Below, in pieces: positions 13,886 through 37,065 of a stretch of DNA of 52,432 nucleotides. Location: positions 1-52,432 of the IMG/VR virus record IMGVR_UViG_3300047586_000094; one strand, written 5' to 3'. The translations under genes were made by a program, and so were the position numbers. Under the pieces are notes generated by a model. It was not told the origin of the DNA, did no database searches, and worked only from the letters and a program-made list of their open reading frames with translations. The DNA is from a virus (lineage: Duplodnaviria > Caudoviricetes). Position 1 is the first letter of the stretch. Every line of letters begins with the position of its first letter.

Positions 13886-14719
13886 ATGAATGCAATTACC
13901 AAAGGTGAATTTCTTCAAATGGTGAAGCTTCAACACTTAGAAGTTCTCACACCTGAGCAGATGGCTCAAAACACCAATACCATAAAGACATATATTGAAA
14001 AGGCTTCAGTTGAAGAACTGACTGAACTGGAGAAAGCTACGGCTAACACTTTAATTGCAGAAGTTGGTGAATTCACCTGTTGGAACGTTCTCAGGGATGA
14101 TTTCTCGAAAGCAGTTGTATATACTCGTCCGGAGCAGGTCGTGTGGGATGAGCCTGTAAAGGGAGAGTTTGGTGAAATCATTAAGGCTAAAGGTGGAATT
14201 TATAAACCTACTGCTGAGAATAAGAAGCTGGGGCGTGTTGGTCAAAAGTATGGTGAAGGAAAAAAGGATATTTTTCCAAAAGGTGATCTAACTAAGGAAA
14301 AAGAAAAGTACGAGGCAGATGCAGCATCGAGTAGAGCCAGAGATCATTTTGAAAAAGAAGGTGATGAGAATGAGACGCCTGAAAAAGTAAAATATGATGC
14401 CATTCAGAAGAAATATGACGATGCTGTTGCTAGAGGTGATTATGCTGCTGCTGAAAGATATGCTAACGCACATGCTGTTCAAGGAGCTCTTGTTCGTGAA
14501 GAATGGGATAAACATCATCTTAAATCAGGTGTAAGTAAACCAGGAAATAGAGAAGCATATGATGAGATGACTCGCTATGGTCATATTCCTATAATTGGAG
14601 ATGAAAAAGATTCTAATTACTACCCTGATATAGATTATTCAAAACACTTAGCTGATGCTGAAAGAAAATATGGTAAGGGAAATTATACACATGATAAATC
14701 AGGAAATAAAAGAAAATAA
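13886..14719 (+). CDS. putative processed internal head protein
   Basis: Several xxK|A sites; carries the KAKGGIYKPTAENKKLGRVGQKYG module shared with 38767..40173. Confidence 0.55.
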   Translation: MNAITKGEFLQMVKLQHLEVLTPEQMAQNTNTIKTYIEKASVEELTELEKATANTLIAEVGEFTCWNVLRDDFSKAVVYTRPEQVVWDEPVKGEFGEIIKAKGGIYKPTAENKKLGRVGQKYGEGKKDIFPKGDLTKEKEKYEADAASSRARDHFEKEGDENETPEKVKYDAIQKKYDDAVARGDYAAAERYANAHAVQGALVREEWDKHHLKSGVSKPGNREAYDEMTRYGHIPIIGDEKDSNYYPDIDYSKHLADAERKYGKGNYTHDKSGNKRK

Positions 14720-15097: not shown

Positions 15098-16000
15098 ATG
15101 ATCGAAAGAGCTGTCTTTTCATACTTCAATCCTGGAGAGTCATTTACAAATAAAGCAGGTTTTCATTTTTACAGTGACTTTTTATATACTATGGCTTTGG
15201 CTACTGAGTATGCCACCCATCATTTTCCCGTGGTACAAATAATAACAAGTACTTGGGGAGAAAAAGTATTAAGAGGTGCTGGAGTGCCTGCTACGGAATA
15301 TTCTTCGGGATTGGATTGTATGAAAAGTGTCTCCCCTTGGTTTTGGGCGTATGGTAAGCTAATTGCATATAATATGCAAACCACTCCATTTGTACATATT
15401 GATAATGATGTTTTCATGTGGAAACCTTTACCTACACGTATACGTGGTGCTGAGCTTTGCTTCCAGAGTAAGGAATATATGAATATTCCCAGTTATCAAT
15501 GGTATGATGTTTTAACTCCCTGTTGGAATACAGCTCCTGTTCGTCCGGAGATTATTGTCAGAAATCCTATCAGAGATTTTGTGTATAATTGTGGTATTTG
15601 TGGAGGACACAATCTTGAGTTCTTTAAAGAATGGATTAAGTGCAGTGCTGAATATATTTTTGCTCCGGAGAATCAACCGGTGTTTTTTGGACAATTCAAG
15701 AATGTGCTTATGCATCAGAATTTATTTCATGAACAATATTTTGCTGCTTGTTTAATTAAAGCACATAACATGCGTGGACGAGTACAGGTAATTACTGATA
15801 ACGTACAGAATTTGGTCCGGGATACTAATCGGGGATATTCTCATATGTGGGGTGTTACAAAGACTGATCAACGAGTGATTGCAAAAGTCAAAGCAAGATT
15901 AAAAGCAGAATTTCCACAATTATATAATCAGGTAACTGATTTTACTAATTCTTATCTATTTAATGAATGTCACGAAGAAGAAATAAAAGCACTGGTTTAG
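15098..16000 (+). CDS. DUF6734-like nucleotide-diphospho-sugar transferase
   Basis: WAYGKL, PFVHIDNDVF (DxD), NCGICGG, EQY. Confidence 0.7.
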   Translation: MIERAVFSYFNPGESFTNKAGFHFYSDFLYTMALATEYATHHFPVVQIITSTWGEKVLRGAGVPATEYSSGLDCMKSVSPWFWAYGKLIAYNMQTTPFVHIDNDVFMWKPLPTRIRGAELCFQSKEYMNIPSYQWYDVLTPCWNTAPVRPEIIVRNPIRDFVYNCGICGGHNLEFFKEWIKCSAEYIFAPENQPVFFGQFKNVLMHQNLFHEQYFAACLIKAHNMRGRVQVITDNVQNLVRDTNRGYSHMWGVTKTDQRVIAKVKARLKAEFPQLYNQVTDFTNSYLFNECHEEEIKALV

Positions 16001-17664
16001 CTTTACCTCAAACTTTAGAGAAGGCAGATGAAGCAATACAGAAACTGACTATTCATAAATCTTTGTTATTTGAAAAGTTAGCTGAGTCTTCTCGTCCTGA
16101 TGATGTTATGAAAGCAATTTCATATCAAAATAAACAGGCTGGGATGAATAAAGATCAGCAGAAAGCCTTTTTATTTGCTCCTGATAATGAGTTTTATACT
16201 GGACAAGGATATAAGCCGGCAATAAAGATTGTTCCTTTTGAATTCTTACGTTCGATGGGGACAACTCCGGTGGTCTTTTCAGTTATTAGCACAAGGTTAA
16301 ATCAACTATTGGAATTTAGTAATTTCTCAGTCGATTTAGATCGTCCGGGATGGACAATTCGTAAAAAGATTTCCAGGTTTGAGAAAGATTACGAAAATAC
16401 AGATCAAGACAAACGAGCTATTGAAAAGATAGTGGACTTCCTGGAGAATGGTGGAATCAATGCCAAGTTCACAATTCATGATGACTTTCATGATTTTCTA
16501 AAAGTGTTTCCACGGGATTTATTGGAATTGGATCAGGGTTGTTTTGAGTTACAAAGAACTCGTGGTGGAGACCTTTTAAATTATAATACTGTCGATTCTT
16601 CTACAATTCGTTTGTTGGAGACGATTGATCCAAATTACAGGGATGATAAAAAGTACGTACCTCAGACATTTAAGGATGATGAATATTATCCATTCTATTG
16701 TCAGGTCTGGCGGGAAAGATTAATGCAAAATCCAAAAACCAAACAGGATATTATTTGGTATCCTTGGGAAATGTGTTTTGCTATCCGTAATAAACAATCA
16801 TCTATAATGGCTAATGGCTATGGACAATCTGAATTGGAAGTCCTGATGAGGATTGTGACTTGGTTATTGGAGTCCATGGAATATAACGGTCGTTTTTTTA
16901 GCAATGGAAGCAACCCTCGTGGCTTTTTTACGATGAAAGGTGGGGTGGATCCAAAGATGTTAAATGACTTCCGAATGGCTTGGAGATCAATGGTTACGGG
17001 ATGGCAGAATGCACATAAGGTTCCAATCTTTGAAGCTGACAAGATTGATTGGGTTGATATGCAAAACACTAACAGAGAAATGGAGTTTTCAAAGTGGATG
17101 GAACTTTTAACTTTAATCACTTGTGCAGTATATAAAACAGATCCTTCGGAGATTGGTTTCAAATCAGGACAGACAAATCAATTGTTTGGGGAGAGTGGAC
17201 AAAAACAACGTCTGGAACATTCCAGGGATAAAGGACTCAAACCACTTTTGAAAGTTGTTGGAAAGAATGTTGATAAATTTATTGTCAGTGAATTAAATCC
17301 TAACTACGAATTTATATGGACTGGGGTTGATATTGAAGATGAAACCACTAAATTGGAGAATGATGTTAAGAAGTTAGCCAATGGAATGGTTGCAATGCAG
17401 GATAAATTCAAAGAATATTCCGGAAGGGAATTTGATCCGGAGAAAGATATTATTTTGAGTTCAGTTTATCAGCAATCAAAACAAATGGCTGCTTTTGGTG
17501 GTCAGGGAATGAATGGTGTGGTAGATCAGGAAAATGGAGGAGAAGATATTGGACAGAAGAATCCTTTTGATGATTTTGAAAACGATATGCAGAAGGGAAA
17601 AAGCTCAGATCCAATAATGAGTGAGTTAATTAATTATATTAACAAAGAAATAATAACAAAATAA
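15967..17664 (+). CDS. portal protein
   Basis: 565 aa; GYGQSELE, YNGRFFSNGSNPRG, EMEFSKW, DPSEIGF, SRDKGLKPLL match SPO1/Twort-like portals. Confidence 0.92.
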   Translation: MSRRRNKSTGLALPQTLEKADEAIQKLTIHKSLLFEKLAESSRPDDVMKAISYQNKQAGMNKDQQKAFLFAPDNEFYTGQGYKPAIKIVPFEFLRSMGTTPVVFSVISTRLNQLLEFSNFSVDLDRPGWTIRKKISRFEKDYENTDQDKRAIEKIVDFLENGGINAKFTIHDDFHDFLKVFPRDLLELDQGCFELQRTRGGDLLNYNTVDSSTIRLLETIDPNYRDDKKYVPQTFKDDEYYPFYCQVWRERLMQNPKTKQDIIWYPWEMCFAIRNKQSSIMANGYGQSELEVLMRIVTWLLESMEYNGRFFSNGSNPRGFFTMKGGVDPKMLNDFRMAWRSMVTGWQNAHKVPIFEADKIDWVDMQNTNREMEFSKWMELLTLITCAVYKTDPSEIGFKSGQTNQLFGESGQKQRLEHSRDKGLKPLLKVVGKNVDKFIVSELNPNYEFIWTGVDIEDETTKLENDVKKLANGMVAMQDKFKEYSGREFDPEKDIILSSVYQQSKQMAAFGGQGMNGVVDQENGGEDIGQKNPFDDFENDMQKGKSSDPIMSELINYINKEIITK

Positions 17665-17665
17665 A

Positions 17666-18427
17666 ATGGATAATTCATTAGTGCTTTGTACAGGAAAGCT
17701 TCCGAAAAAGGAAGATCGATTAGATCGCACATTACTCTTTGCTAAATATGTAGGAACCTTAGCTCCTCCTCAACTGACATATGATGGTCTGATGAGGATT
17801 TATAATAATTTAGGAATAACTGACCCTGGAAAGTTATTTCCTATGGATGGCAATGATCAGCTTGGTGATTGTGTCATGGCAGGGGGTGCACATATACTTA
17901 CAAATTGGTATGGAATGATAAATAAAAAGAAAATTCCTACAAGATGTGCTACTGTTCGTCAATATAAACATCTCACCGGAGGTCAGGATACAGGACTTAA
18001 TATGCTTGATACTCTTAATTATTGGAGGCAACATGGTCTGTTTGGTGAAAAGATTGATGCTTTTGTTGAAAATAATATAAAGAATCAGATGCAGCTAATG
18101 CAGAGCATCTCAGTTTTTGGTGGTCTTTATTTTGGAGCTAACCTTCAGGTTGGAGCACAAGATGATTTCCGGGCAGGTCGAATATGGACAAAAGGACCTT
18201 TAAGTGGTGATGGACATTGCATGGTTATTTTAAGTTATGATCAGAATGGTGTTACTCTTCTGACTTGGGGAGCTATTCAGAAAGCTGATTGGGATTGGGT
18301 CTTCTGCTGCTTGGATGAAGGATATACAATTCTTCCTAAAGAAGCTGAAAAAGTAGGATTTGCTCCGGGATATGATTTTGCAACTCTTGAACAGGATTTA
18401 ACAGCAGTTACTGCTATTGCAGCATAA
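17666..18427 (+). CDS. papain-like cysteine peptidase
   Basis: NDQLGDCV (Cys), GHCM (His), TWG. Confidence 0.75.
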   Translation: MDNSLVLCTGKLPKKEDRLDRTLLFAKYVGTLAPPQLTYDGLMRIYNNLGITDPGKLFPMDGNDQLGDCVMAGGAHILTNWYGMINKKKIPTRCATVRQYKHLTGGQDTGLNMLDTLNYWRQHGLFGEKIDAFVENNIKNQMQLMQSISVFGGLYFGANLQVGAQDDFRAGRIWTKGPLSGDGHCMVILSYDQNGVTLLTWGAIQKADWDWVFCCLDEGYTILPKEAEKVGFAPGYDFATLEQDLTAVTAIAA

Positions 18428-22272: not shown

Positions 22273-25050
22273 ATGATACAGAAACTCAGACGACTATTAG
22301 GCTGGGAAGGTTACGAAGAAGCTCTTCGTAATTTTTCTACAATAGTGGAAGAAAGTGAATTACTCAAGTCAGAGATTGATTTGATGGCTGCTGAATATAT
22401 TGGAGCTTCTAATGATCTTAGCAAGTGGCTATTGGATGAAAAAGAACCAGAGGTGCAGACATTGATCAAATCTCAACAGAGTGGTTTAACTTCCCGGTAC
22501 TTATCTTTTTTGAGTGACAAACAAAAAAGTTATAAGAAGTATGCAGCTGACAAGAAAGCATATATTCAAAAATACCCTGAGTTTGAAAAAGCATTGGCAG
22601 ATCTTAAGAAAAGTGATTTCCTGGAACAAACCCTGGAAAGATATCGTTCTTCTGAGTTGACTCTGGATGAAGCCACGACTATAATCAAAGCAGTTACAAA
22701 GGAGAAAGTCAATTACGCTGACAATATTGTGTTCAATCAAAATGGAGAAATTCTTATTGAACAACGTGGTCCCTTGGATACCACTGGTCCAAATCTTTGG
22801 TGTCTTCCCGGTGGTCATGTCAATATGGGTGAAGCTTATGAAGCAGCTGCAATGCGGGAGTTATGGGAAGAAACTGGATATCAGGTTGATGATATTTGGC
22901 AGGTAGGAGAACATGACGATGATAAATGTCACATACAATATTATACTTCAATGGTGGATACTGATGAGCAATCTCCTATTGTTGATGCCAATGAAACCAG
23001 AAATACAGCATTTGTCCCCGTTAGTAAACTCTACGATTATCCTACTATATTTAACATGTGGGATCGGGTGTATGAGATTTTAGGATTGGATGAAAATATA
23101 GTTCGGGTTAAGAAAGCTATTGCTGAAGGAATTATAAAAGGAGCATCTAAATTAATTGGTGATGCTCAGATTGATTCTATATTTAAAGGTTGTGGTGACG
23201 TTCCGGAAGGAAAGAAGAAAAAGAAAAAGAAGTTTAAAGAAGTGATGGATAAATGGAAGTCCGGAGCTTTACACAGTGGAAGTAAAGAAGGAGAGAAGGT
23301 AACTAGTCAAGCTCAAGCTCAAGCTATTGCTATTGCTATGAGTGAAACAGGACAGAGTAATCAGAAGGGTATTGAGGATGAGTTTGAAAAAGCACAAAAT
23401 AATGAAGATTTAAAAGATCTGGATGATGCAGGTATTCTTCGCACTGCTGTTACAGCTGAATTTGATGCAATAAACCTTTATGAACAGTTAGCAAAGAACG
23501 CTAAAGATGAAAAACTTAAAAAGCTTTTTGCAGATATTGTCAAAGAAGAAAAAACTCATGTTGGGGAGTTTGAAGCACTCCTGACGGAAGTTGATAAAGA
23601 ACAATCTCATGAATTAAAGTCCGGAGAAAAAGAAGAGAAAAAGGTAGAAATTGAAAAGGCTGAATTTATCAGAACAAAATGGCCTGAAGGAACAACAGAA
23701 TTTGAGAAAGCACGGACACTTGGACATTTGATTCCAAAGAAAGTTCAAGTCAAAGATAAATCAGGAAAAGTCCATCTGGCTATTCGCTGGGTCAATCCAA
23801 ATTCAGGAGAATCAGAACATTTTGCATCCGGGATGAAAGAAAACAAAAGAATTACCGGTGCAACAATTGAAGATATTGTAGCTGGTATTGTCGATAGTGA
23901 TTTATCCAGGGCAGATAAAGTCAGGAATTTAATTGATTGTGGAGTTTATGATCCTAAACTACTTACTTTATTGACTGGGGAAACTTATCCACAAAAGGCG
24001 TTACAACAAGCAGATATAAATTTAAAGGACTTACCTGATAATTCAGAAGCGATTGTCACAGAGGTTCGGAAAGAGCAGGGAGTTACTGACACTCCAGAAG
24101 GTCGGGAAGCAAGTATGTTAATGAGAGATCCGGCAGACATAGCAGTTTTATGGGCAAAATACAAATTGAATATAAAAACCGTTCTTAAAGGCAATCATAA
24201 ACTTTGTGTTGCTTATGGAACAGGTGGTGTTGGAAAAACATGGAATTGTATGAATGTAGTTGAGAATTTTAGTCCTCCCGGAGAAGAAGGTTTTAAGTTG
24301 AGACGTTTTAATAAGGAGATACAACCAGATCATGATCAATATGATTATGTAGTTGTAAAAGGAAGGATTTCAGTCGTACAAGTATATGCTGAGATGTATC
24401 GTCATCGGGATAAGATTATTATATTTGATGATTGTGATTCATTTATGAAAGAACAGGATGTACAAGGCTTTCTTAAAGGTGGATTGGATACAGGAAAAGA
24501 TTGTGAGATATCTAATTTGACAGGAAGAGCTATATATAATATTCAAGGTGATCCTGACTCAGGACAGATTCCAGATACGTTCAAATTCAAGGGTGGTGTC
24601 ATTTGTATTACAAACTTGGAATTAGGAGATATTAAAGAAAAGGCAATTCTTACTCGTGCATTGCTTAATAACTTATCAATGATAACAGATGAAACCCTGC
24701 GAATGATTGCAGAGTTTAAAGATACAATGGAAATATATTCTGCAGATAAAGCAACCGTTGTTTTTGTCAGTCAGGAAAATAGAGATCTTGCTTTTAATAT
24801 GTTAACAGAACAAAAAGATAGTTTATCTGGTGGGGATGTCAATGGCAGGATGTATAGTAATATGGCTTTACAAGCACAAGAAGCAGATGATGACGGTATT
24901 GATCAAGCAACAAAAGTAAAAATGGTTCAATTATATATTGATAGTGTTGCTGATAAGTTTACTAAACAAATGAGAGCAGCAGCATTACAAACAAAAATGA
25001 ATCAGATATATAATCAAAAAATACAATCACAACAAGCAAAATCAAGATAA
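22273..25050 (+). CDS. polyvalent protein 1: Nudix + DUF6496-like + ferritin-like + AAA ATPase
   Basis: Nudix box GGHVNMGEAYEAAAMRELWEETG; KWKSGALHSGS..AIAIAMSE; AEFDAINLYEQ..EEKTHVGEF; Walker A GTGGVGKT and Walker B IIFDD. Confidence 0.85.
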   Translation: MIQKLRRLLGWEGYEEALRNFSTIVEESELLKSEIDLMAAEYIGASNDLSKWLLDEKEPEVQTLIKSQQSGLTSRYLSFLSDKQKSYKKYAADKKAYIQKYPEFEKALADLKKSDFLEQTLERYRSSELTLDEATTIIKAVTKEKVNYADNIVFNQNGEILIEQRGPLDTTGPNLWCLPGGHVNMGEAYEAAAMRELWEETGYQVDDIWQVGEHDDDKCHIQYYTSMVDTDEQSPIVDANETRNTAFVPVSKLYDYPTIFNMWDRVYEILGLDENIVRVKKAIAEGIIKGASKLIGDAQIDSIFKGCGDVPEGKKKKKKKFKEVMDKWKSGALHSGSKEGEKVTSQAQAQAIAIAMSETGQSNQKGIEDEFEKAQNNEDLKDLDDAGILRTAVTAEFDAINLYEQLAKNAKDEKLKKLFADIVKEEKTHVGEFEALLTEVDKEQSHELKSGEKEEKKVEIEKAEFIRTKWPEGTTEFEKARTLGHLIPKKVQVKDKSGKVHLAIRWVNPNSGESEHFASGMKENKRITGATIEDIVAGIVDSDLSRADKVRNLIDCGVYDPKLLTLLTGETYPQKALQQADINLKDLPDNSEAIVTEVRKEQGVTDTPEGREASMLMRDPADIAVLWAKYKLNIKTVLKGNHKLCVAYGTGGVGKTWNCMNVVENFSPPGEEGFKLRRFNKEIQPDHDQYDYVVVKGRISVVQVYAEMYRHRDKIIIFDDCDSFMKEQDVQGFLKGGLDTGKDCEISNLTGRAIYNIQGDPDSGQIPDTFKFKGGVICITNLELGDIKEKAILTRALLNNLSMITDETLRMIAEFKDTMEIYSADKATVVFVSQENRDLAFNMLTEQKDSLSGGDVNGRMYSNMALQAQEADDDGIDQATKVKMVQLYIDSVADKFTKQMRAAALQTKMNQIYNQKIQSQQAKSR

Positions 25051-25051
25051 T

Positions 25052-25216
25052 ATGGCAAACGCTAATAATGAGAAAGAATTAGATCTTGACGATTTTACTT
25101 TGGAGGATCTTGAGTTAATGTATCGGGTAGAATTGTATAATGACATTGATTCACCTTTTGCCGTCAGTTTAATGAATGAAATTGTCAGAAGAAAAGAAAT
25201 TTTAGAAGTAGCATAA
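25052..25216 (+). CDS. small acidic protein (candidate immunity/partner)
   Basis: Manual ORF of 54 aa, MANANNEKELDLDDFTLEDLELMYRVEL...EVA*; fills the gap exactly, TAATG-coupled. Confidence 0.65.
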   Translation: MANANNEKELDLDDFTLEDLELMYRVELYNDIDSPFAVSLMNEIVRRKEILEVA

Positions 25217-28200
25217 TGGCTAGAGAGTGTCCAGTTGGGACAATTCATATTTGGGGAGATGCTCGTGGGGAAGGTACTGAAATGATTAAAGCTCACGATC
25301 CTGTACAGCCATACAGCTCGGGCTGGGTGCCTCTAAGGACTACTCCCAGATTTGATCAGGTTGGAAGAGAGTGTGATGCTTATGGACGAGATATCCTCAG
25401 TCATAAGCTTCCAATTGATGGAGAAAAGTTCTTAGATCATGAAATAGATGAATTTGGAGAAAAAGAAGGAGGTGATTTTTTCAGATCTGGTGAGTTCAAA
25501 AAGTTTGAAGGTTGGCATGATTCTGGTCGGTATGCTTTTCGTAATCAGTTTTCTAAGTTGTATATGGATAATATTATGCGACTGGATGAAGAGGTTGCCA
25601 GGGCAGTATATGATGCTAATGCAGCACTTGGATTAGATCCAAAAGAAGATCACCTATCAGCAGAAGAAAAGAAAGAAGTACGAGCTGAAATACGAGCAAG
25701 GTTCAAATCGAATCCGGACACAATAGATGAAGAGAAAGTTCTGAGATTACTTGAGATTATTAAAAAAACTAAGGAACAGATTGAAATTGGATTGGATTTT
25801 AAAGATCCTCTACAAAAGAAAGCCTACGAAGATTTCCGGATTATTGTGGATGCTTTACCAGAGACATATGAGTTAATATCTGAAAAACGAAAACTCCGGC
25901 TTAAAGCCGTTGATTTGATGGAGGATATGTTTCCTGATAACTGGGGTGTTCGGGAATCATGTAAAGATTATGCTCAAAAGAAATTCGATGAGTATGTCAG
26001 AAAATATGCTGATAGAATTTCTAAAGATAGTCTGGAAGAACAGCTCAAGATGTTTGGTGTTACAATAGATATGGAACCAGATGAGTTCTATAGTAAGATT
26101 TATGCTAAGGCTGTAAATACAAATTATGATTATCTGGAGAAGTATGTTGGAAAAGAAATTCGATTTGCCGGACATGATGTTCGTTATAAAGTCATAAAAG
26201 AAAATGGTCAACTTTATTATGTGGATCAAAATGGATATAAATACCTTTTAATTGCAGCTTTAAAGAATAATGAATATCATTTATCTCCGGAGTATGATGA
26301 GTTTGGTGGAGGATTCAAGGATTTGGTTTACCTTAGATTCATGAAGCGTTATGGTAAATCAATTGAAGGGGAATGGACATTGGAACAATTACCAGCTATT
26401 CACAACCTGGAGAATTTAGCTAATGAGTTACCAGATGGACAATTTAAAACAAATGAAGAGTTATACCTCATTACCAATAAAAGTTATGCTGGTGGAGATC
26501 ATGGTGGTTATGCTTGGTATAATCGTGGTGAAAGACGTATAAATTTAAGTGCTCAATGTATTGCCAGAGCAACAGTTTGGGGAGTATTACAAAATCCATC
26601 AGAGTTTAAGTCTGTATTATTACATGAAATAGGACACTCAATAGATGCAAAAATTAATGGGACAGCTACATATGATTATAAGAAATTCGTGGTGGATTGT
26701 GGTTGGACATATCAATCAAAGGAGTTACGAGCAGGAATGTCAGCAACCGGGAATCAGAAAGATATTCTACGAACTGGATCTAATGCTTCTACAACTTTAA
26801 TAACTGACTACGCTCATAAGTCTCCCAGTGAAGCATTCGCAGAATATTATTCATTTTATAATCTGAATAAAAAACATTTTGATAAATATTTTGAAACTGG
26901 AGATACACAATATTTACAAACAGATAGTAAGATAATTGCCAAGAGTGTTTCTTCAGAACAGAAGATTAAACAGATGCTTGGTACCAGAATAATTAAACCG
27001 GGAGATGATCATGAATATGAATTAAAGCATGAGAGACCTAAAAGAGTCAATGTTCCAGAAGGACAACCACAACCTCCACCACCTCCCGTTCCAACTATAG
27101 GAGCACAACAAGTGTTGAAAACATATAATGAAGTTACTCAGGCTTTATCTGACCGTGGACAGGATCATCAAATAACATTGACCAATCCTTGGTCAATGAA
27201 ACTTAGTATAGAGGAGCAAGCAAAGTTTAATCCTAAACGTGTTAAAGAACGTAAAGGGTTTTCAATTAATTCCATGCCACCTCTTGTAGTTGTAAAAAAT
27301 GGAGCAACTCGTGTGGTTATTGATGGTGGGGTCCGGATGGAAGTAGCAAGAATGAATAAACAATTGGCTCCTTGTATTGAGATATCAAAAGAAGAATATT
27401 ATAATTGTCGGGATCGTGGAATGGATGATCGTCAAATTTCTGATTGTGTTTATACGAAGCATGCCGATGATTGGGTTCCAAAACAAATTGCACCTGCTGT
27501 CCGGGTAAGTGGTTTAATTTATAGGGATGAGTTGGTTCCATTGGATGTTATTTTAGACAATCATGATGGAATAAAAACAATGAAAGATCTTTGTGAATCA
27601 AAAACTTTACAGAAAGCAATCGAGGAGTTATTTGGTGATATAGACGATGGGTTTAATAAAGCAATACAAAGAGGCAAACTCTATCCCAAAAAAGTACAGG
27701 TCAAAGGGAAAGATGGTAAAACTCATACAGCTATTCGTTGGGTTAAAATACAAGAGGAAGAGAAACCAGTCACTCCGGAGAAAAAAGAAAAGAAAACTTT
27801 TATAAGTGATCCAAAAAAATCTGTTATTCTTAGTCAATTAAAAGGAATGCTTCAATTGAATCTTTCTGATCAACAGAAAGAATATATGGAGTGGAAGCTT
27901 AAGCATGCCAAGTTAATTTCAACATTTACACATACGGATGAGATTAGACAACAATATCCAGCAATTGATCGTTTTTTAAAACATTTCAAACCAGTAGTGA
28001 AAGAATGCTATCGAAATGCTTCCCGAATGGCTGTTGACGTTCCAGGGATTGAGTATGTGGAAGGTTCCATTTCTTTGAGGGATTTACCTATAGAAATTGA
28101 ACATGCTTGGAATAAAGTAGGAGATCAATATTTTGATATTATGTCTGATAATTGCTGGGATGAACGTTCCATGCCTACGTCTGAATATGTTTCTTTTGTG

Positions 28201-29127
28201 GAATTAAACGACGAAGCTTTGGACGAATGTATGTTGGAAGATGGAATGTATGGTGAATGTGTTAAAAAAACATTTCTCAAAGAATTAAAAGCAAAACAAA
28301 GTACATTCTCATATGAACCCAACTCAGCCCTCAAATCTAAAGCTCATCAACTTATAGAAACTAAGTTTGCTGATGAGTTAAAATGGAATTTGGATGCAAA
28401 AGAAAAAGAATATAAAGCTAAATTTCATAATGTACTTAGTGGGGATAATGCTAAGGAGTTGTCTGAAGATTACATGAAAGATCCTATGGGATTATCAGAA
28501 GCTGTTCATGAGCCTGCGTCCGGATTTGTGAAATATTTGTATAATAAAGAGTTAAGTGTCCCAGTTACGAAAGATCAAGACAATGTGGTGGTATTTACAG
28601 CAGGGGGATCAGGAGCAGGTAAGACGACTGGTATTACACAGTTTGGAGTGTTGGGAGATCTTACGAAGAAAGCAAATATCGTTTATGATACCACGATGAG
28701 TTCATTCCGAAGTGCAGATAATAAAATTCAGCAGGCAATTAAACATGACCGGGATGTTGTAATCCTTTATGTTTATAGAGGGTTGGAAGATGCATTTACA
28801 AATGGAGTTGTTCCCAGGATGAAAGCAACCGGACGGGTTATTCCTTATTATGCACACGTAATGAACCACATTGACTCTTTAGCTACTATTAAAAAATTAA
28901 CAGACAAATATAAAGATAGTGATCGGGTCTCAATTCAATTGGTGGACAACTCTAATGGGTTTGGGAATGCAAGAATAATGACACCAGAAGAATTGAACAA
29001 TATTAAGTTTGTAGAACCTGAACATTATGAAAAAGAATTATTGGCAGAGATTAATAAACAGAAACAAAATGGACAAATCACAGAAAGACAATACAAAGGA
29101 CTTCTTGGATCAAGAAGCGTCACTTGA
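25216..29127 (+). CDS. polyvalent protein 2: zincin metallopeptidase + ParB-like + papain/transglutaminase-like + zeta-toxin-like kinase
   Basis: HEIGH..YAHKSPSEAFAE; PPLVVV..VIDGGVR; CYRNA..HAWN..FD; FTAGGSGAGKTT..YDTT..GRVIP. Confidence 0.82.
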   Translation: MARECPVGTIHIWGDARGEGTEMIKAHDPVQPYSSGWVPLRTTPRFDQVGRECDAYGRDILSHKLPIDGEKFLDHEIDEFGEKEGGDFFRSGEFKKFEGWHDSGRYAFRNQFSKLYMDNIMRLDEEVARAVYDANAALGLDPKEDHLSAEEKKEVRAEIRARFKSNPDTIDEEKVLRLLEIIKKTKEQIEIGLDFKDPLQKKAYEDFRIIVDALPETYELISEKRKLRLKAVDLMEDMFPDNWGVRESCKDYAQKKFDEYVRKYADRISKDSLEEQLKMFGVTIDMEPDEFYSKIYAKAVNTNYDYLEKYVGKEIRFAGHDVRYKVIKENGQLYYVDQNGYKYLLIAALKNNEYHLSPEYDEFGGGFKDLVYLRFMKRYGKSIEGEWTLEQLPAIHNLENLANELPDGQFKTNEELYLITNKSYAGGDHGGYAWYNRGERRINLSAQCIARATVWGVLQNPSEFKSVLLHEIGHSIDAKINGTATYDYKKFVVDCGWTYQSKELRAGMSATGNQKDILRTGSNASTTLITDYAHKSPSEAFAEYYSFYNLNKKHFDKYFETGDTQYLQTDSKIIAKSVSSEQKIKQMLGTRIIKPGDDHEYELKHERPKRVNVPEGQPQPPPPPVPTIGAQQVLKTYNEVTQALSDRGQDHQITLTNPWSMKLSIEEQAKFNPKRVKERKGFSINSMPPLVVVKNGATRVVIDGGVRMEVARMNKQLAPCIEISKEEYYNCRDRGMDDRQISDCVYTKHADDWVPKQIAPAVRVSGLIYRDELVPLDVILDNHDGIKTMKDLCESKTLQKAIEELFGDIDDGFNKAIQRGKLYPKKVQVKGKDGKTHTAIRWVKIQEEEKPVTPEKKEKKTFISDPKKSVILSQLKGMLQLNLSDQQKEYMEWKLKHAKLISTFTHTDEIRQQYPAIDRFLKHFKPVVKECYRNASRMAVDVPGIEYVEGSISLRDLPIEIEHAWNKVGDQYFDIMSDNCWDERSMPTSEYVSFVELNDEALDECMLEDGMYGECVKKTFLKELKAKQSTFSYEPNSALKSKAHQLIETKFADELKWNLDAKEKEYKAKFHNVLSGDNAKELSEDYMKDPMGLSEAVHEPASGFVKYLYNKELSVPVTKDQDNVVVFTAGGSGAGKTTGITQFGVLGDLTKKANIVYDTTMSSFRSADNKIQQAIKHDRDVVILYVYRGLEDAFTNGVVPRMKATGRVIPYYAHVMNHIDSLATIKKLTDKYKDSDRVSIQLVDNSNGFGNARIMTPEELNNIKFVEPEHYEKELLAEINKQKQNGQITERQYKGLLGSRSVT

Positions 29128-29254
29128 TGACGTATCGGTTGAAGGTTTAAAAAGTATGCCAACTGAAAAGAAGGGGCTTTTGTATCTCAGTTCTTTTATG
29201 AAAAATTTGAATGGACATACTCAGGCAAAGAGTAAAAAAGAAAAAGGTGAGTGA
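29069..29254 (+). CDS. small protein downstream of zeta domain (candidate antitoxin)
   Basis: ORF track 29027..29254; probable start ATG 29069 (61 aa), overlapping the 3' end of the toxin gene. Confidence 0.5.
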   Translation: MDKSQKDNTKDFLDQEASLDDVSVEGLKSMPTEKKGLLYLSSFMKNLNGHTQAKSKKEKGE

Positions 29255-29981
29255 AGTTCAAGATATATTGCACGATTCTAGTATTTTGATTGACGATAGA
29301 ATTGAAAAAGCCCTTACTATATTAGATGATATAGAAAGATATCGATGCAAAGATGGGAAGTTTCGTGTAATTTATATATCATATGATGAAGTGAATGGTA
29401 TGAAATATGTTGGACAACATACTACTGAGAATCTAAATGATGGGTATTTAGGATCTGGATTAGTCATTCAGAGAATTCTCAAGAAATATGGTAAAGAACG
29501 ATTTGATTGTGGAATTCTTGAATATTGTAAAAATAGGAATGAGCTTAACAGGAAAGAAAAATATTGGATCAAATATTTTAAATTAAAAAATCAAAGTTAT
29601 AATATTGGAAATGGTGGAACTGGTGGTGATAATATTACGGATAATCCTAATTATGATCAGATTATAGCAAAAATGTGTATTGCTAGTAGTGGTCGATTTT
29701 TAGGAAATCATCATTCAGAAGCAACAAAACATTTGCAAAGTCTAGCTAAAATAAATAAGTCACTTTCTAAAGAACATAAAAATAATATAAGTAAAAGTTT
29801 GGAAGGACGTGTTGTTACTGAAAACACACGTGAGTTGATTAAAAAAGCACTTAAAAGCAGATCATTTATTACTTGTTTTTATTGTGGATGGACAAGTCAA
29901 GATGCTAGTTATATGAAAAGACGTCATTTTGATAATTGTATTCATAAATTTGAGTTTGTTAGAACAAGATTTAATAATTAA
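29211..29981 (+). CDS. GIY-YIG homing endonuclease
   Basis: VIY..KYVGQH..DGYLGSG..YG..E..YN; NUMOD3-like HSEATK; one CxxC..HFDNC module; start may be GTG 29247. Confidence 0.88.
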   Translation: MDILRQRVKKKKVSEVQDILHDSSILIDDRIEKALTILDDIERYRCKDGKFRVIYISYDEVNGMKYVGQHTTENLNDGYLGSGLVIQRILKKYGKERFDCGILEYCKNRNELNRKEKYWIKYFKLKNQSYNIGNGGTGGDNITDNPNYDQIIAKMCIASSGRFLGNHHSEATKHLQSLAKINKSLSKEHKNNISKSLEGRVVTENTRELIKKALKSRSFITCFYCGWTSQDASYMKRRHFDNCIHKFEFVRTRFNN

Positions 29982-29985
29982 ACCA

Positions 29986-31053
29986 ATGATAAAAGATAAT
30001 TTTACTTTTTTTGTACCTGTAGAATTAGAAAAAGCAACAACCAATCCTAATGATTCTAATAGATATAAGAATATGATTCTTCGTGGAGTTGCAAGCACAT
30101 CTGATGTAGATGCCGATAATGAAGTATTAGAACCTAGTGGGTTTGATCTTTCAATACTTAGAACTAAAGGAACCATCAATTATGAGCATTTGGCAAAACA
30201 AAGTGCTTTAAATATTATTGGTGAACCTATTGAAGCAGAGATAAGAGACAATAAATTTATATTGAAAGCAAAATTGTGGGAAAAATCAATTAAGGCACGT
30301 GATCTTTGGGATACTTTACATATCATGCGTGATAGTGGCAGTACAAGAAAATTAGGTTGGTCTATCGAAGGAAAACCTATTGCAAGAGATCCACGGAATC
30401 CAAGTAGAATCCTTAAAGCACTCATAACCAATGTAGCCGTCACATTTGCACCGAAGAATGGTCAGACTTATGCTGACATTTGTAAAGGACAGTTAGCACC
30501 AAAAGAATTAGATTATGATATTCCAACTGATGTTGATTATCTTTTCAAGGGGATGTATGGTAATCACGAATATACATTAAATAAAGATTTTACTATAACT
30601 AAAGCAATGTGTGCAGGATCCACTACCGGACAAGCATTAATAGGACAGGATACGTCCGGAGCTGCTTTGAAAAAAGAACATCTGGATGAAGATCTTAAAA
30701 TCCTGACAATTCCTATTTCAACCATAAAATGGTCAGCTGACAATTGGGAAAGTTTTCAGGAAGATACTAAGAAGGCTTTACAAAAAGCTTTGCATGATCA
30801 ATTGGAGAAAGGTGGTGAAGGAAGTCGTGGAGGTAGAGTTATAGGTCAAACAAAATCAGGTAAGAATATCTATGCAAAACACTATAATCCACAACAATTA
30901 GAAGGGTGGGACAAAGAAGATCATGCAGATGCTAGTAAAAGACATCAGGAAGAAAGTGAAAGATATAAAAAGATGGGATCTGCTGGATATGATTCTTACC
31001 AACATCATGCTAGAATGGCAATATATCATAAAGAAAAATCCGAACAGAAATAA
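29986..31053 (+). CDS. prohead (maturation) protease with C-terminal extensions
   Basis: GVAST..DADNE, NYEH (His), LGWSIEG (Ser); probable start ATG 29986. Confidence 0.88.
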   Translation: MIKDNFTFFVPVELEKATTNPNDSNRYKNMILRGVASTSDVDADNEVLEPSGFDLSILRTKGTINYEHLAKQSALNIIGEPIEAEIRDNKFILKAKLWEKSIKARDLWDTLHIMRDSGSTRKLGWSIEGKPIARDPRNPSRILKALITNVAVTFAPKNGQTYADICKGQLAPKELDYDIPTDVDYLFKGMYGNHEYTLNKDFTITKAMCAGSTTGQALIGQDTSGAALKKEHLDEDLKILTIPISTIKWSADNWESFQEDTKKALQKALHDQLEKGGEGSRGGRVIGQTKSGKNIYAKHYNPQQLEGWDKEDHADASKRHQEESERYKKMGSAGYDSYQHHARMAIYHKEKSEQK

Positions 31054-31922: not shown

Positions 31923-33470
31923 ATGAATCCAACAGTAGCAGATCTTTATAATTATAGTGGACTTGAGAACGGAGTGTTTCCTGGACTTGATTCCCCTGAC
32001 AAAATTTATGAGCTTGCGAAAGCAATGTCTGCCGGAGACACAACCGGTCAGGGTCTCATAGGTACGTTAACAAGTGGTGCAGCATTGAAAACAGAATCAT
32101 TGGATCCAATGCTAAAAATCTTAACTTCCACAGACAAGCATATTGTCCTGCACAAAATTCTGCCAAAACAGAATGCATTCAACACAGTGGAAGAATTCAA
32201 CCAGTTGGTTGATTATGGGCTTAATATTGGAATCTTTAATAAAGAGGGGGAAACTCCTCAGTTTACAGATTCCATCTACAGAAGGGAATCTGTACTGATC
32301 AAGTATACAGGTGTGAGTGGTGAAGTTACCCATCCATTTACATTGGTAAGGCTTGGATCAGGAGTTGGTGATGCCCTTGCCCAGGAAGTAAAAAACAAAA
32401 CTCAGTTCCTCCTTCGTGCTCTTGATAAAGCATATCCGGTTAGTGATAGCCGTTTGGTTGCGGATGAGTTTGATGGCATATTTAAACAGCATTATGCTGG
32501 TGTTACCGGTGCTGCCCTGCCAAGTGCAGTTAATCTCACGACATATTTTAAGAACACTTCTGCTGTTATTGATGCTCGTGGCTATATCCTTTCGGATAAA
32601 ATGGTTGAAGATGCTGCCCATGCAGTTGTCAATGACAACTTTGGTATGGTTTCCAGCATTATAGGCCCGCCGATTGTATTTAGTAATTATGTTGCACAGT
32701 TCCATGAGTCAAAACGTATTATCGTTGGTAGCCCGAATGGTGTAGAAGGGGCTACAATGGGTCAGTCAGTCAATGATATCATGACTCAGTTTGGAAAAAT
32801 TGGAGTCGTAAGTGATATCTTCTTTGACTATAAAGTATCGAAAGCTTGGAATGAAGCTGCATCGAGTGCAAAAGCTCCTGCTGCTCCGGTTCCCGCAGGT
32901 GCTTTGACAAATGCAGTTACAGATACCGATACAGAATTTACCGATTCAAATGGCAATTACTGGTATGGAGTAACTGCTAAAAATCGTTATGGTGAATCAG
33001 CAATGGCTCTTCTTGACACTGCAGTTCAGGCAATTGCAACAACTGAAGCTTGTGATATTACATTCACTCATACTGACGGAGCTTATGCAGCAGAGTGTTT
33101 TGTAATTTACAGGACTGAAAAAAGTCCCGCTGCTTATACTACAGCAAAATTCTATCCAATTATAACAGTGACCCGTGGGGAATTTGGTATTGGATATGAT
33201 GGAGCAGGTGCAGGAAGTGTAAGAGATAAAAACAGAATCATCGCAAATACACATTCAGCAATTGTTCTTGATAATAGTCTGGATGTATGGGCATTGAAAC
33301 AGTTGGCCCCAATAATGAGAATGGACTTAGCAAGAACCAGTCCATCCTTCAGGTTTATGGTTCTTGCATATTTGACAATGGTCTTGTTTGCTCCCAAAAA
33401 GATTTCGAGAATTGTCAATATTGGTTCAGCAATTCCTTCAAGCGTACCATACTTTAATACCCACGTTTAA
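31923..33470 (+). CDS. major capsid protein
   Basis: 515 aa; KAMSAG..GAALKTESLD, TVEEFNQ, EFDG, Ig-like insertion, QLAPIMRMDLA; SPO1/Twort-like. Confidence 0.93.
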   Translation: MNPTVADLYNYSGLENGVFPGLDSPDKIYELAKAMSAGDTTGQGLIGTLTSGAALKTESLDPMLKILTSTDKHIVLHKILPKQNAFNTVEEFNQLVDYGLNIGIFNKEGETPQFTDSIYRRESVLIKYTGVSGEVTHPFTLVRLGSGVGDALAQEVKNKTQFLLRALDKAYPVSDSRLVADEFDGIFKQHYAGVTGAALPSAVNLTTYFKNTSAVIDARGYILSDKMVEDAAHAVVNDNFGMVSSIIGPPIVFSNYVAQFHESKRIIVGSPNGVEGATMGQSVNDIMTQFGKIGVVSDIFFDYKVSKAWNEAASSAKAPAAPVPAGALTNAVTDTDTEFTDSNGNYWYGVTAKNRYGESAMALLDTAVQAIATTEACDITFTHTDGAYAAECFVIYRTEKSPAAYTTAKFYPIITVTRGEFGIGYDGAGAGSVRDKNRIIANTHSAIVLDNSLDVWALKQLAPIMRMDLARTSPSFRFMVLAYLTMVLFAPKKISRIVNIGSAIPSSVPYFNTHV

Positions 33471-33552: not shown

Positions 33553-34149
33553 ATGAAAATTGAAACTATTGTTAAATCCTATGCAAACCAGATAGTAAAG
33601 TTTGCTGATGGTATTCGTGTAACGTTTAATGCTGATTGCACAGCAGAAGTTTCCGAAGAAGATGGAAAGAAATTATTGGAAAGATACACAACTCAAATTT
33701 TTCCTGAAGGAAAGGTTATTCAGCCAGAAATTGCAAAATCACCTGCATTACCAAAAGTAGATAAGGCTACTATAAATGAATTACAGGAACAGTTACAAAG
33801 AGCAAATCATTTAATAAATGATTATGCAGCTCAGGCTAATACTGCTAAGGAAGGAGAACGTGTCTGGAGGAATAAATGTACTGAATTACTGGGACAGATA
33901 AAGACTTTACAAGCTCAGCTTGGTCAAAAGGCAGATATAAAACCGGATGATGCACCAAAGAATGAATCTGAAAAAGATTCTAAGAAAACTGAACAAGTTG
34001 ATGCTGCAGCTTTACTGGAGAAACTTTCAGCAAAAACGGTTAAAGAATTGCAAGTAATAGCTGATGAGTTAAAACTTCCCCAAAAGAAATTGAACAAACA
34101 AGGACTTGTCGATTACATAATCGCCGCAACAACAAATGCCACAACTTGA
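33553..34149 (+). CDS. coiled-coil protein with C-terminal Rho-N/HeH-like domain
   Basis: LSAKTVKELQVIADELKL..KLNKQGLVDYI. Confidence 0.65.
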   Translation: MKIETIVKSYANQIVKFADGIRVTFNADCTAEVSEEDGKKLLERYTTQIFPEGKVIQPEIAKSPALPKVDKATINELQEQLQRANHLINDYAAQANTAKEGERVWRNKCTELLGQIKTLQAQLGQKADIKPDDAPKNESEKDSKKTEQVDAAALLEKLSAKTVKELQVIADELKLPQKKLNKQGLVDYIIAATTNATT

Positions 34150-34984
34150 AGACACATTATTTATTCGAACTAGATATTCTGATTTTTACTACATTGTTTA
34201 TAAGACCACGAATCATATAAATGGGAAGATTTATATTGGTCGTAAACTTACTAAAAATCTTAACGATGGATATTTAGGATCGGGTAACCATTTTAAAAGA
34301 GCACTTAATAAGTATGGACAAGATAATTTTTATCGAGAAATTCTAGAATTCTGTCAAGATAGAAAGCAACTTTCTGAACGTGAAATTTGGTGGATTGCTG
34401 AACTTGATGCTAGAAATCCTATTATTGGATATAATATAGGTCGTGGTGGAGAAGGCTCTAATCTTGAACATTTTACAGAAGAACATAAAAAACATTTACG
34501 TGAGAGCCATAAAGGAAAACATATAGGCCATCCAGGATGGAGTAAAGGACTAACAAAAGAAACTGATGTTCGTTTACAACAAACTAGTATTAAATTAAAA
34601 GGTAAAGTGGGTCCACGTCTTGGTGCAATTACGTCAGAAAAAACAAAACAATTACAAAGAAAAAAAGCATTAGGTAGACATTGGTCATCTAAGCGAAAGG
34701 AAATATACTATAAACGACCAATGGTAACTTGTCCTCATTGTGGTTTTGTATCAAGAAATCAAATGACATTAACTAAATTACATTTTGATAATTGCAAAAT
34801 GAATTCCAATAGAATTGTGACTGCAGAGATTCTTGAAAAGAAGAAGAATTATAGTATGTATGTAAAGAAACGTCTTTTAAATTTGCCTATGGAAACATGT
34901 CCATGTTGTGGTCTTCAAGGAAGAGGAGGGGCTATGAAACAATGGCATTTTGATAATTGTAGACATGTACAAAAAATAGCATAA
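34136..34984 (+). CDS. GIY-YIG homing endonuclease
   Basis: IVYKTTNHINGKIYIGR..DGYLGSG; two CxxC..HFDNC modules. Confidence 0.92.
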   Translation: MPQLEDTLFIRTRYSDFYYIVYKTTNHINGKIYIGRKLTKNLNDGYLGSGNHFKRALNKYGQDNFYREILEFCQDRKQLSEREIWWIAELDARNPIIGYNIGRGGEGSNLEHFTEEHKKHLRESHKGKHIGHPGWSKGLTKETDVRLQQTSIKLKGKVGPRLGAITSEKTKQLQRKKALGRHWSSKRKEIYYKRPMVTCPHCGFVSRNQMTLTKLHFDNCKMNSNRIVTAEILEKKKNYSMYVKKRLLNLPMETCPCCGLQGRGGAMKQWHFDNCRHVQKIA

Positions 34985-36282: not shown

Positions 36283-37065
36283 ATGACAAACATTCGAACA
36301 CAAACAGCCCCTATTCTTGCTGGTGCTCCAAAGGCAAGCTTTCAAGCAGATGCATTTGATGCTCTGTTATGGAACCAGGGCTATCGTGTCGAATTGGAAG
36401 AGGCTCGTCAATGCCCCTGTCAATCTCTTGAATCTGGGACACCTTTAGTAACTTGTCAAAACTGTCGTGCTTGTGGTTGGCTTTTTTTAAATCCTATTAC
36501 AACAAAAGCTGTTATTTCCAATATCAATAAGAAAACCAAATATGGTGTGGAATGGTCAGAAGAAAGTATTGGAACTATTCTAGTGAGTTTAATGAATGTT
36601 GATCGATTGGCTGATATGGACAGAATTACTTTTTTGGATGTTGTTTCAAAATGGAGTGAGCGTCGTCGGGTTCGAACAGTCAATGGACAACAGTTTGTAT
36701 TTTTAACATATAAGCCTCAGGAGATATTGGATGTGTTCTATTTACAAAATGCACAATTGCCTTTGATCAAATTAATAGTGGATGAGGATTATTCATTACA
36801 CCCAACCAATCCGTATATCTTGAATTTAAACATTGCTCCTATTGCCGGATGGAACTCAACAGTGACGGTTACTTATATGTGTAATCCACAGTATCACGTA
36901 ATAGATCTTCCACATGAGTTACGAGCAGGAACAATAATAAATCAAATGGGACAAATTGAAAAAGTTGATTTACCGGTGAATGCAGTTTTGAAAAAATCTC
37001 ATTTGTGTTTATCTTTAAATGACTACGATGGAGGTATACAAACTTTAGATAATTCGTATAGGTAA
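36283..37065 (+). CDS. neck / head closure protein
   Basis: CPC..CQNCRACGW motif, DRITF; conserved position in SPO1/Twort-like modules. Confidence 0.7.
   Translation: MTNIRTQTAPILAGAPKASFQADAFDALLWNQGYRVELEEARQCPCQSLESGTPLVTCQNCRACGWLFLNPITTKAVISNINKKTKYGVEWSEESIGTILVSLMNVDRLADMDRITFLDVVSKWSERRRVRTVNGQQFVFLTYKPQEILDVFYLQNAQLPLIKLIVDEDYSLHPTNPYILNLNIAPIAGWNSTVTVTYMCNPQYHVIDLPHELRAGTIINQMGQIEKVDLPVNAVLKKSHLCLSLNDYDGGIQTLDNSYR

Follow-up and report, generated by a model that had tools for sequence, protein, structure and literature searches.

We analysed the gene P0001 (positions 22273 to 25050, + strand, ATG start) in the viral record IMGVR_UViG_3300047586_000094, whose whole length of 52,432 bp is referred to below as the window; it is a complete IMG/VR record, estimated to be 47% complete. 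P0001 encodes a 925-residue multidomain protein of the polyvalent type within a phage head module. From the N-terminus, its parts are a coiled coil, a Nudix hydrolase domain, a weak DUF6496 segment, a half-ferritin like the encapsulin cargo protein EncFtn, a beta-hairpin called here the RWV hairpin, and an AAA+ ATPase, all on the + strand. The interpretation that we prefer, with a probability of roughly 0.58, is that P0001 is a multi-effector polyprotein from the head module of a Bacteroidota-type myovirus, which is packaged, cleaved, and ejected.

An initial annotation, made by a model from the letters alone, had described this open reading frame (ORF) as joining Nudix, DUF6496, ferritin and AAA parts. 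It proved to be a single real gene, and all of the domain coordinates given there hold. Separate Nudix, ferritin and ATPase genes might have been joined through a chimeric assembly or the loss of a stop codon, and in one related locus (L004) a 277-aa Nudix gene does stand next to a separate 626-aa ATPase gene. However, the independent metagenomic homologs P0004, P0005, P0006 and P0009 have the same fused architecture and cover 97-98% of P0001, the Nudix-EncFtn-ATPase order is also found in P0006 and P0008, and the frame is unbroken across the ORF in the window, so that an artefactual fusion is extremely improbable. The start MIQKLR is identical in four homologs. The split in L004 instead indicates that P0001 is a fusion of units able to stand alone.

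The half-ferritin domain occupies aa 380-457 (23410-23643), where a ferritin-like segment had been placed at about 23410-23605, and its AlphaFold model consists of two helices (385-409 and 413-445). The best match in a phmmer search of the PDB was 2e0z_A, the Pyrococcus furiosus encapsulin with an N-terminally fused EncFtn (E 2.1e-19), followed by the P. furiosus EncFtn 5n5e (E 3.3e-19) and by EncB and EncC of M. xanthus; identity to these two-helix half-ferritins is high over 72 aligned residues. The best NCBIfam model was the 'EncB family encapsulin nanocompartment ferritin-like cargo protein' (E 6.9e-17). The identity with encapsulin ferritin cargo that had been suggested is thus borne out by the top matches in both collections. 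The broader Pfam family Rubrerythrin matched aa 388-462 (E 3.5e-8, 34.4 bits over a cut-off of 22.8), and is the only curated family whose cut-off the segment passed. The iron-ligand positions are E396, Y403, E426 and H429, which together with E425 make up the E..Y..EE.H pattern noticed at the outset. Their spacing (+0/+7/+30/+33) is that of Glu32, Tyr39, Glu62 and His65 in the ferroxidase centre of Rhodospirillum rubrum EncFtn, as given in the available text of PMC5012862, whereas the equivalents of the entry-site residues Glu31 and Glu34 are A and D. The four ligand columns were invariant in 19 of 19 aligned sequences. In a complex prediction, two EncFtn segments with two Fe scored 0.30 relative to a mark of 0.42, a value that we count neither for nor against the domain.

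Several features set this domain apart from EncFtn of encapsulin systems. The encapsulin shell family PF04454 had no match in the window, which therefore lacks the co-encoded shell of an encapsulin cargo system, and no cargo-loading peptide was seen by eye after the second helix, although no formal search was made. The domain lies within a 925-aa multi-enzyme protein, or elsewhere within portal or protease proteins, of phages that package DNA. As in the P. furiosus fusion, on the other hand, it is linked to an HK97-fold shell system by fusion and not supplied as a free protein.

Proteins related to P0001 were collected by a word-indexed search, which gave 17, and by an exhaustive HMMER search, in which 3,543 proteins passed E ≤ 1e-3 and 78 passed E ≤ 1e-30. 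Two units recur in them, together or with other partners: an N-unit of coiled coil and Nudix (aa 1-290) and a C-unit of RWV hairpin and AAA+ ATPase (aa ~480-900). The slot between the units holds an EncFtn-like domain in P0001, P0006 and P0008, and a DUF5661 domain in P0002 to P0005, P0007, P0009 and P0012; in P0010 the EncFtn domain is C-terminal. Partner domains were surveyed in 51 proteins out of about 60 N-unit matches among 150 listed HMMER matches. They included Kinase-PolyVal (3), ADPrib_exo_Tox (3), ART-PolyVal (1), GNAT-type Acetyltransf_CG (3), ParBc_2 (2), Zeta_toxin (1), DUF3626 (4), DUF5661 (9), DUF6496 (10) and Rubrerythrin (2). We also considered whether DUF5661 is a diverged EncFtn, and rejected this on an hhalign probability of 0.7%. 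The DUF5661 segments of 16 family proteins share the conserved pattern GGxAD...IAxKH...VExEHT...IAxDHLxExxxYY with possible metal ligands, followed by [IM]E[KS] linkers.

The variable slot bears on what the half-ferritin is for. It could be a module for metal-dependent oligomerisation, whose dimer or annular decamer bundles the polyprotein or nucleates an internal head body, with ferroxidase activity irrelevant. EncFtn decamers do form in a way that depends on metal, via the di-iron dimer interface (PMC5012862, in the text available), and most relatives fill the slot with the unrelated DUF5661, so that no single chemistry is essential there. The four ligands are nevertheless kept in all viral copies, which fits both views but is what selection for iron binding predicts, and a decamer of D5 symmetry would clash with a ring-forming ATPase in one uncut chain. 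We regard a purely structural role as quite improbable.

The position of these genes is conserved together with their modularity. In five further loci, L004, L007, L184 (GenBank MT835500), L185 (Chryseobacterium phage MA9V-3) and L186, the genes for Nudix and/or ATPase proteins lie upstream of those for protease, scaffold and capsid, and immediately upstream in L184 and L007. The order in L004 is Nudix protein, ATPase protein, a 1411-aa protein, protease, scaffold and major capsid protein (MCP); in L184 a 667-aa Nudix protein precedes protease, scaffold and MCP. L186 comes from a phage closely related to that of the window; its order is a 689-aa Nudix-DUF6496-EncFtn protein, a 273-aa ORF, the protease (E 1.8e-120), scaffold and MCP. 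The P0001 family therefore shows the pattern described for polyvalent proteins: at least two unrelated effector-type domains per chain, shuffled among homologs, in a virion-morphogenesis gene context. Polyvalent proteins, as presented by Iyer et al. 2017 in the available text of PMC5512222, likewise combine many unrelated enzymatic domains in shuffled architectures, are encoded among portal and head genes, and are predicted with their effectors to be packaged in the phage head and injected; P0001 relatives carry two of their named domains, ART-PolyVal and Kinase-PolyVal. P0001 itself differs in having neither MuF nor a metallopeptidase nor another signature PolyVal domain, and its leader is a coiled coil with Nudix. 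The link to MuF mentioned in the initial annotation does not apply to P0001: the family Phage_Mu_F (PF04233) had no match in P0001 or anywhere in the window, and the ORF after the portal gene (17666-18427) had no Pfam match.

The distribution of the half-ferritin among other viruses places it on head proteins more directly. A tblastn search of 50,697 phage records with the EncFtn segment gave nothing at E ≤ 0.01, so no isolated phage in that set carries the domain. Scans of IMG/VR with single sequences (P0001 or the segment) confirmed nothing, while profile scans identified 26 contigs with an EncFtn-like domain, and the ligand pattern E-x6-Y-x22-E-x2-H was retained in 26 of 26. Among proteins of 508-1619 aa, a search with region 375-470 retrieved only P0001 and P0010; local BLAST added P0006, P0008 and P0024. 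Fifteen of the 26 viral ORFs are small (93-168 aa) and 11 are larger. One of the larger ORFs, an 885-aa protein in L196 (5980-8637), joins Phage_portal_3 (E 8.3e-77; phrog_146, E 2e-102) to an EncFtn domain (aa 509-567) and a topoisomerase IB; upstream of it is a terminase-like ORF, and 3 kb downstream is a capsid gene that matches PDB capsid proteins. In L193 (5006-6112), an ORF that runs off the contig end starts with an EncFtn domain and continues into DUF2213, phrog_6216 (E 2.6e-83) and phrog_530, a 'head maturation protease'. The portal family phrog_15528 and the protease family phrog_6216 both match the P0001 Nudix domain, which other phrog_6216 members carry N-terminally, so that Nudix and EncFtn are alternative passengers on the same two head-protein families. 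L204, L207 and L208 each have a portal homolog, with the EncFtn ORF about 2-2.5 kb downstream.

No encapsulin shell (PF04454) was matched in any of 15 viral records with EncFtn-like ORFs that were tested besides the window, and these are thus not misfiled encapsulin operons. Among cellular proteins, the nearest homologs (54-67% identity) stand alone, with lengths of about 90-134 aa, and come from archaeal metagenome-assembled genomes (MAGs), candidate-phyla bacteria, Caldisericota, Thermodesulfobacteriota and gammaproteobacterial MAGs. Linocin_M18 was matched in none of five of their genomes, which are incomplete MAGs, and no shell gene lay near the homolog at the one locus inspected. In an unrooted tree of 70 columns, the five EncFtn domains of the polyvalent family fell on one side of a branch with support 94/89, which is compatible with a single acquisition, though the alignment is short. 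A 168-aa EncFtn-like ORF with an intact ligand pattern and no encapsulin shell match was also found in L197, a complete record (CheckV 100%) that has direct terminal repeats and, at 411,618 bp, the size of a jumbo phage.

An alternative to packaging is that P0001 is expressed late and acts, whole or cut, in the infected cytoplasm, with the AAA+ part as an assembly or remodelling chaperone, Nudix in nucleotide cleaning or the removal of host signals, and EncFtn as an iron or peroxide buffer while virions are produced; its place in the head module would then merely reflect co-transcription. The AAA+ family is indeed widespread in phages as separate genes at a distance from the head genes (in Bacteroides phage DAC16, in many T4-like records, and as nrdC.10), the 15 small viral EncFtn ORFs are stand-alone genes, and the evidence for virion association is indirect. 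The fusions to a portal and to a head-maturation protease, however, put the EncFtn domain physically in the proheads of those phages. The ART, Kinase-PolyVal and ParB-like nuclease partners of the relatives are domains predicted to be injected (PMC5512222, in the available text), and a linker motif described below is common to the scaffold and protease proteins. We consider cytoplasmic action unlikely relative to packaging.

In other large phages, the scaffold and the internal head proteins share a cleavage motif for the prohead protease. A candidate motif of this kind, h-E-K-[A/G/S], brackets the EncFtn domain of P0001 as FEKA at aa 371-374 (23383-23394), within a disordered linker (segment 360-381, pLDDT <50), and as IEKA at aa 460-463 (23650-23661; pLDDT 50-55), just after the domain. 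Another FEKA at aa 477-480 (23701-23712), just before the RWV hairpin, could be a cleavage site but could instead belong to the hairpin module. Three of the four copies in P0001 thus lie in linkers of low confidence, the fourth (104-107) being inside a confident helix. The motif was fixed from P0001 as [FILVM]EK[AGS], and each + strand ORF of at least 100 aa was then compared with 500 composition-preserving shuffles, first in four loci (the window, L004, L007 and L184) and then in two more (L186 and MA9V-3).

In the window, P0001 had 4 copies against 0.43 expected, the protease 2 against 0.15, and the ORFs starting at 13886 and 21745 had 2 each, against 0.13 and 0.08. Similar excesses were found in L004 for the scaffold (4 vs 0.26) and the 1411-aa protein (4 vs 0.73), in L184 for the Nudix protein (3 vs 0.39), protease (3 vs 0.11) and scaffold (5 vs 0.24), and in L186 for the EncFtn protein (3 vs 0.43) and scaffold (2 vs 0.29). 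In MA9V-3, a 532-aa ORF before the capsid gene had 8 copies (0.28 expected), a 520-aa ORF 3 (0.38), and a 168-aa ORF 2 (0.07). The 532-aa ORF (86891-88489 of that record, minus strand), the clearest carrier of the motif, is probably a scaffold; the genes of its region are all annotated as hypothetical. When 162 family proteins were pooled, 306 copies were counted against 56.4 expected. Downstream of the capsid genes, four ORFs had one copy each (38740 and 44034 in the window, 16767 in L007, 17880 in L184), of which only L184 17880-18668 was nominally significant (1 vs 0.03, p 0.03). This distribution, in which only scaffold, protease and internal-type head proteins of the lineage are enriched, resembles the sharing of the motif in other large phages and suggests, at the level of sequence, processing by the prohead protease. 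The internal head proteins and scaffold of T4-type phages are built into the prohead, share a short repeated cleavage motif, are cut at maturation and are partly ejected with the DNA. The candidate motif differs from those of T4 and phiKZ, and the capsid protein does not carry it.

From the gene, its domains and intact residues, its synteny with head genes, the swapping of its parts and the portal and protease fusions, all of which are observed, we infer a course of packaging, cleavage, oligomerisation, enzymatic action and ejection. P0001 would be made late and enter the procapsid, perhaps by means of its coiled coil. There the prohead protease would probably cut it at the exposed h-E-K-[A/G/S] linkers into three products. 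Product (i), about aa 1-372, would comprise the coiled coil, Nudix and DUF6496; product (ii), about aa 375-461, would be the EncFtn-like half-ferritin, freed as a piece of about 85 aa; and product (iii), about aa 479-925, would hold the RWV hairpin and the AAA+ ATPase. The pieces would remain in the capsid with the DNA and would likely be released into the host at infection. The Nudix piece may hydrolyse NDP-X compounds such as signals or caps derived from NAD or ADP-ribose. By homology, two EncFtn monomers of two helices each would combine into a four-helix bundle whose dimer interface holds a di-iron ferroxidase centre, and once free they could build iron-bridged dimers and rings like those of other family members. 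EncFtn may then oxidise or sequester Fe(II), in the capsid or after ejection, shielding packaged or incoming DNA from iron and peroxide chemistry. The earlier proposal of a ferritin cargo inside a phage capsid thus draws substantial indirect backing from the head-module position, the portal and protease fusions and the flanking motif; as cargo in the encapsulin sense, with its own shell, it did not stand.

Several observations weigh against packaging and cleavage of P0001. The association of family members with the virion is deduced from gene context and fusions and not from proteomics or structures, and a head-module placement was obtained for 6 of the 26 EncFtn loci (L186, L193, L196, L204, L207 and L208), from few phmmer queries. 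The EncFtn segment scores below curated cut-offs (21.0 bits against 27 for Pfam EncFtn-like, 61.5 against 90 for NCBIfam EncB_fam, and 44.8 against 125 for TIGR04535). Since the motif was defined from P0001, the enrichment of P0001 itself is circular. There were no copies in any MCP of the tested loci, nothing significant in L007, none in the 1303-aa neighbour of P0001 (0.47 expected), and one in the window scaffold (p 0.26). The split Nudix and ATPase proteins of L004 also have none, as would equally be expected if the motif were required just where parts are fused. Since split forms and the neighbouring 1303-aa ORF retain F[E/N]KA ahead of the hairpin, FEKA477 may be structural. As for the ATPase, its homolog in Bacteroides phage DAC16 (355 aa) is surrounded by small hypothetical genes, at a distance of ~87 kb from the capsid gene; with the breadth of the family phrog_1250 and the existence of an nrdC.10-type homolog, this indicates that the ATPase is not necessarily carried in the capsid.

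The N-terminal coiled coil (aa 1-140, 22273-22692; helices 14-55, 59-100 and 102-125) was modelled by AlphaFold (m53b10a0b4cea) with pLDDT 83-98, and it always accompanies the Nudix domain in relatives. It matched no Pfam family, and Foldseek with the N-terminal model gave Nudix matches only. A structure search of the Atlas with this model gave good matches only to viral NUDIX clusters, beyond which there were generic coiled-coil look-alikes.

The Nudix domain (aa 146-270, 22708-23082), expected at about 22710-23090, was recognized by Pfam PF00293 at aa 150-253 (E 6.7e-19, 68.7 bits against a cut-off of 21.1), by phrog_1198 (E 1.2e-22), and by Foldseek as MutT-like (E 1.7e-8, TM(target) 0.7-0.84); NCBIfam matches were weak and MutT-like. 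Its Nudix box is complete at aa 181-203 (22813-22881), reading G181-x5-E187-x7-R195-E196-L-W-E199-E200-T-G202-Y, and box and fold together identify P0001 as a member of the Nudix superfamily. A PADLOC match to PDC-S07 (E 8.7e-12) covers the Nudix domain only, and was read as generic Nudix similarity. The idea that this domain acts on nucleotide signals is plausible and agrees with predictions published in PMC9503650, to judge from the text available. The same text describes Nudix domains encoded with or fused to MuF, portal and capsid-processing peptidase proteins in phages, myoviruses included. In P0001 the domain is instead joined to EncFtn and AAA+.

The following segment (aa 315-361, 23215-23355), which had been noticed at about 23225-23355, matched Pfam PF20106 (DUF6496) with E 1.7e-3 and 19.1 bits, below the 24-bit cut-off, and is therefore outside the family as defined. 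DUF6496 was found in the 10 relatives counted above at E ≤ 1e-3, with 30.7 bits in L186. Since relatives pass the cut-off, the P0001 segment is best seen as homologous but diverged, in part through a 6-nt duplication. The threefold CAAGCT repeat reported for it was found exactly at 23308-23325, followed by ATTGCT twice. P0001 reads SQAQAQAIAIA where 12 homologs, two residues shorter, read S--QKQAIAIA, so that the repeat represents an in-frame gain of 6 nt.

The conserved hairpin, GHLxPKKVQVKxKxGKxxxAIRWV (aa 484-510, 23722-23802), was defined by invariant alignment columns and corresponds to strands 18-25 and 31-38 of model md9184b5489be. A strict regular expression for it matched 26 of 162 family proteins. 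Over 182 other loci and the window it matched in four sources (three loci and the window), and two of six matches, in L006, were loose. We considered it as a general tag of head proteins and rejected this, the strict form being limited to close relatives and the neighbouring ORF.

The C-terminal 456 residues were modelled by AlphaFold (pLDDT 90) as an AAA+ ATPase following the hairpin and a helical domain. The ATPase (aa 641-925, 24193-25047), foreseen at about 24150-24880, has a Walker A motif GTGGVGKT at aa 649-656 (24217-24240), a Walker B motif IIIFDDCD at aa 715-722 (24415-24438), and the invariant residues N781, R795 and R859, which by position would serve as sensor-1, Arg finger and sensor-2. 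The Pfam AAA match was weak (E 0.12), and Foldseek matches in the PDB were to RFC, Lon, NorQ and ORC (probability 0.99-1.0, E 3.5e-4 and weaker). Matches in BFVD to phage AAA+ ATPases, including nrdC.10 of Aeromonas phage 25, were much stronger (E 1.6e-17). In sequence and fold, P0001 aa 633-870 belong with this phrog_1250/nrdC.10-like family; its members are mostly stand-alone and outside head modules, whereas in P0001 the ATPase is fused behind the RWV hairpin and lies in the head module. P0007 and P0008 have an insertion of about 350 aa right after the GVGK of Walker A (alignment columns about 934-1287), which from its position and sequence blocks we take to resemble an intein with a LAGLIDADG-type endonuclease.

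The genes around P0001 define the head module. The window has a GC content of 31-39%, with nearly all ORFs on the + strand, and no near-identical DNA was found among GenBank phages. The portal gene (15967-17664, + strand) was assigned by phrog_12 (E 3.4e-31) and Pfam Phage_portal; directly upstream and overlapping it is an ORF for a DUF6734 protein (15098-16000, E 3.8e-38). The large terminase had no match among the scanned ORFs, which did not include most of those upstream of 13886. Between portal and P0001 are seven ORFs with no informative family match, one of which matches the unannotated phrog_19005 only. Downstream of P0001 is the gene for the 1303-aa neighbour (25216-29127, + strand), which shares the RWV hairpin module with P0001 (27649-27921; 30% identity over 167 aa) and has a Zeta_toxin-like P-loop kinase at aa 1151-1241; apart from these two it was unmatched in PDB, NCBIfam, PADLOC and PHROGs. 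Then come, also on the + strand, the head maturation protease (29929-31053; phrog_1028, E 1.8e-39, no Pfam family), an acidic scaffold-like protein judged by position, composition and a homolog in L186 (31149-31889), and the MCP (31923-33470; phrog_752, E 2.3e-65).

By tblastn, the MCP was closest to that of an unannotated human-gut phage record (45%), followed by Bacteroides phages DAC/SJC03 (37%) and Chryseobacterium phage MA9V-3 (36%), with more distant relatives in Bacillus and Staphylococcus myoviruses; capsid genes of the Herelleviridae type were among the matches. Genes for tail sheath and baseplate wedge lie further downstream and identify the window phage as a myovirus. Three paralogous ORFs resembling GIY-YIG/NUMOD homing endonucleases (phrog_314) are scattered in the head and tail structural module (29211-29981, 34136-34984 and 37065-37994), the first of which overlaps the protease ORF at its annotated start.

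Polyvalent proteins in phage heads and Nudix domains fused to head proteins have already been put forward in the literature. For ferritin-like, EncFtn or rubrerythrin domains in phage head, polyvalent, portal or protease proteins, no report was found in the literature, supplementary domain tables not being covered. The available text of PMC5512222 contains no occurrence of ferritin, rubrerythrin or AAA+ and one of Nudix, and that of PMC13669383 compares encapsulin cargo with scaffolds and reports no phage EncFtn. The half-ferritins on portal, head-protease and head-module proteins suggest that the capsids of some phages contain an iron-binding enzyme. A wider claim, that encapsulin-type half-ferritins are genuine internal cargo of tailed phages, loaded by fusion to portal, protease or polyprotein and freed by the maturation protease, is tentative, and we think it somewhat unlikely as it stands.

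Encapsulins are considered descendants of phage capsids with the HK97 fold, and to our knowledge EncFtn, their signature cargo, has so far been treated as a purely cellular invention. If the wider claim is true, a DNA-filled HK97 capsid would carry its own ferroxidase, and the EncFtn-in-shell arrangement would be common to encapsulins and the head-cargo systems of phages, perhaps through inheritance from the latter or exchange between the two. EncFtn domains with intact ligands on phage head proteins offer a testable bridge between the loading of internal proteins in phages and of cargo in encapsulins. The h-E-K-[A/G/S] motif, if a true protease site, would predict head-internal proteins across a poorly annotated lineage of Bacteroidota phages. 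The finding adds iron and oxidant handling to the functions that phages may carry in the capsid, and bears on virion stability in phages of anaerobes and on the iron carried by viral particles.

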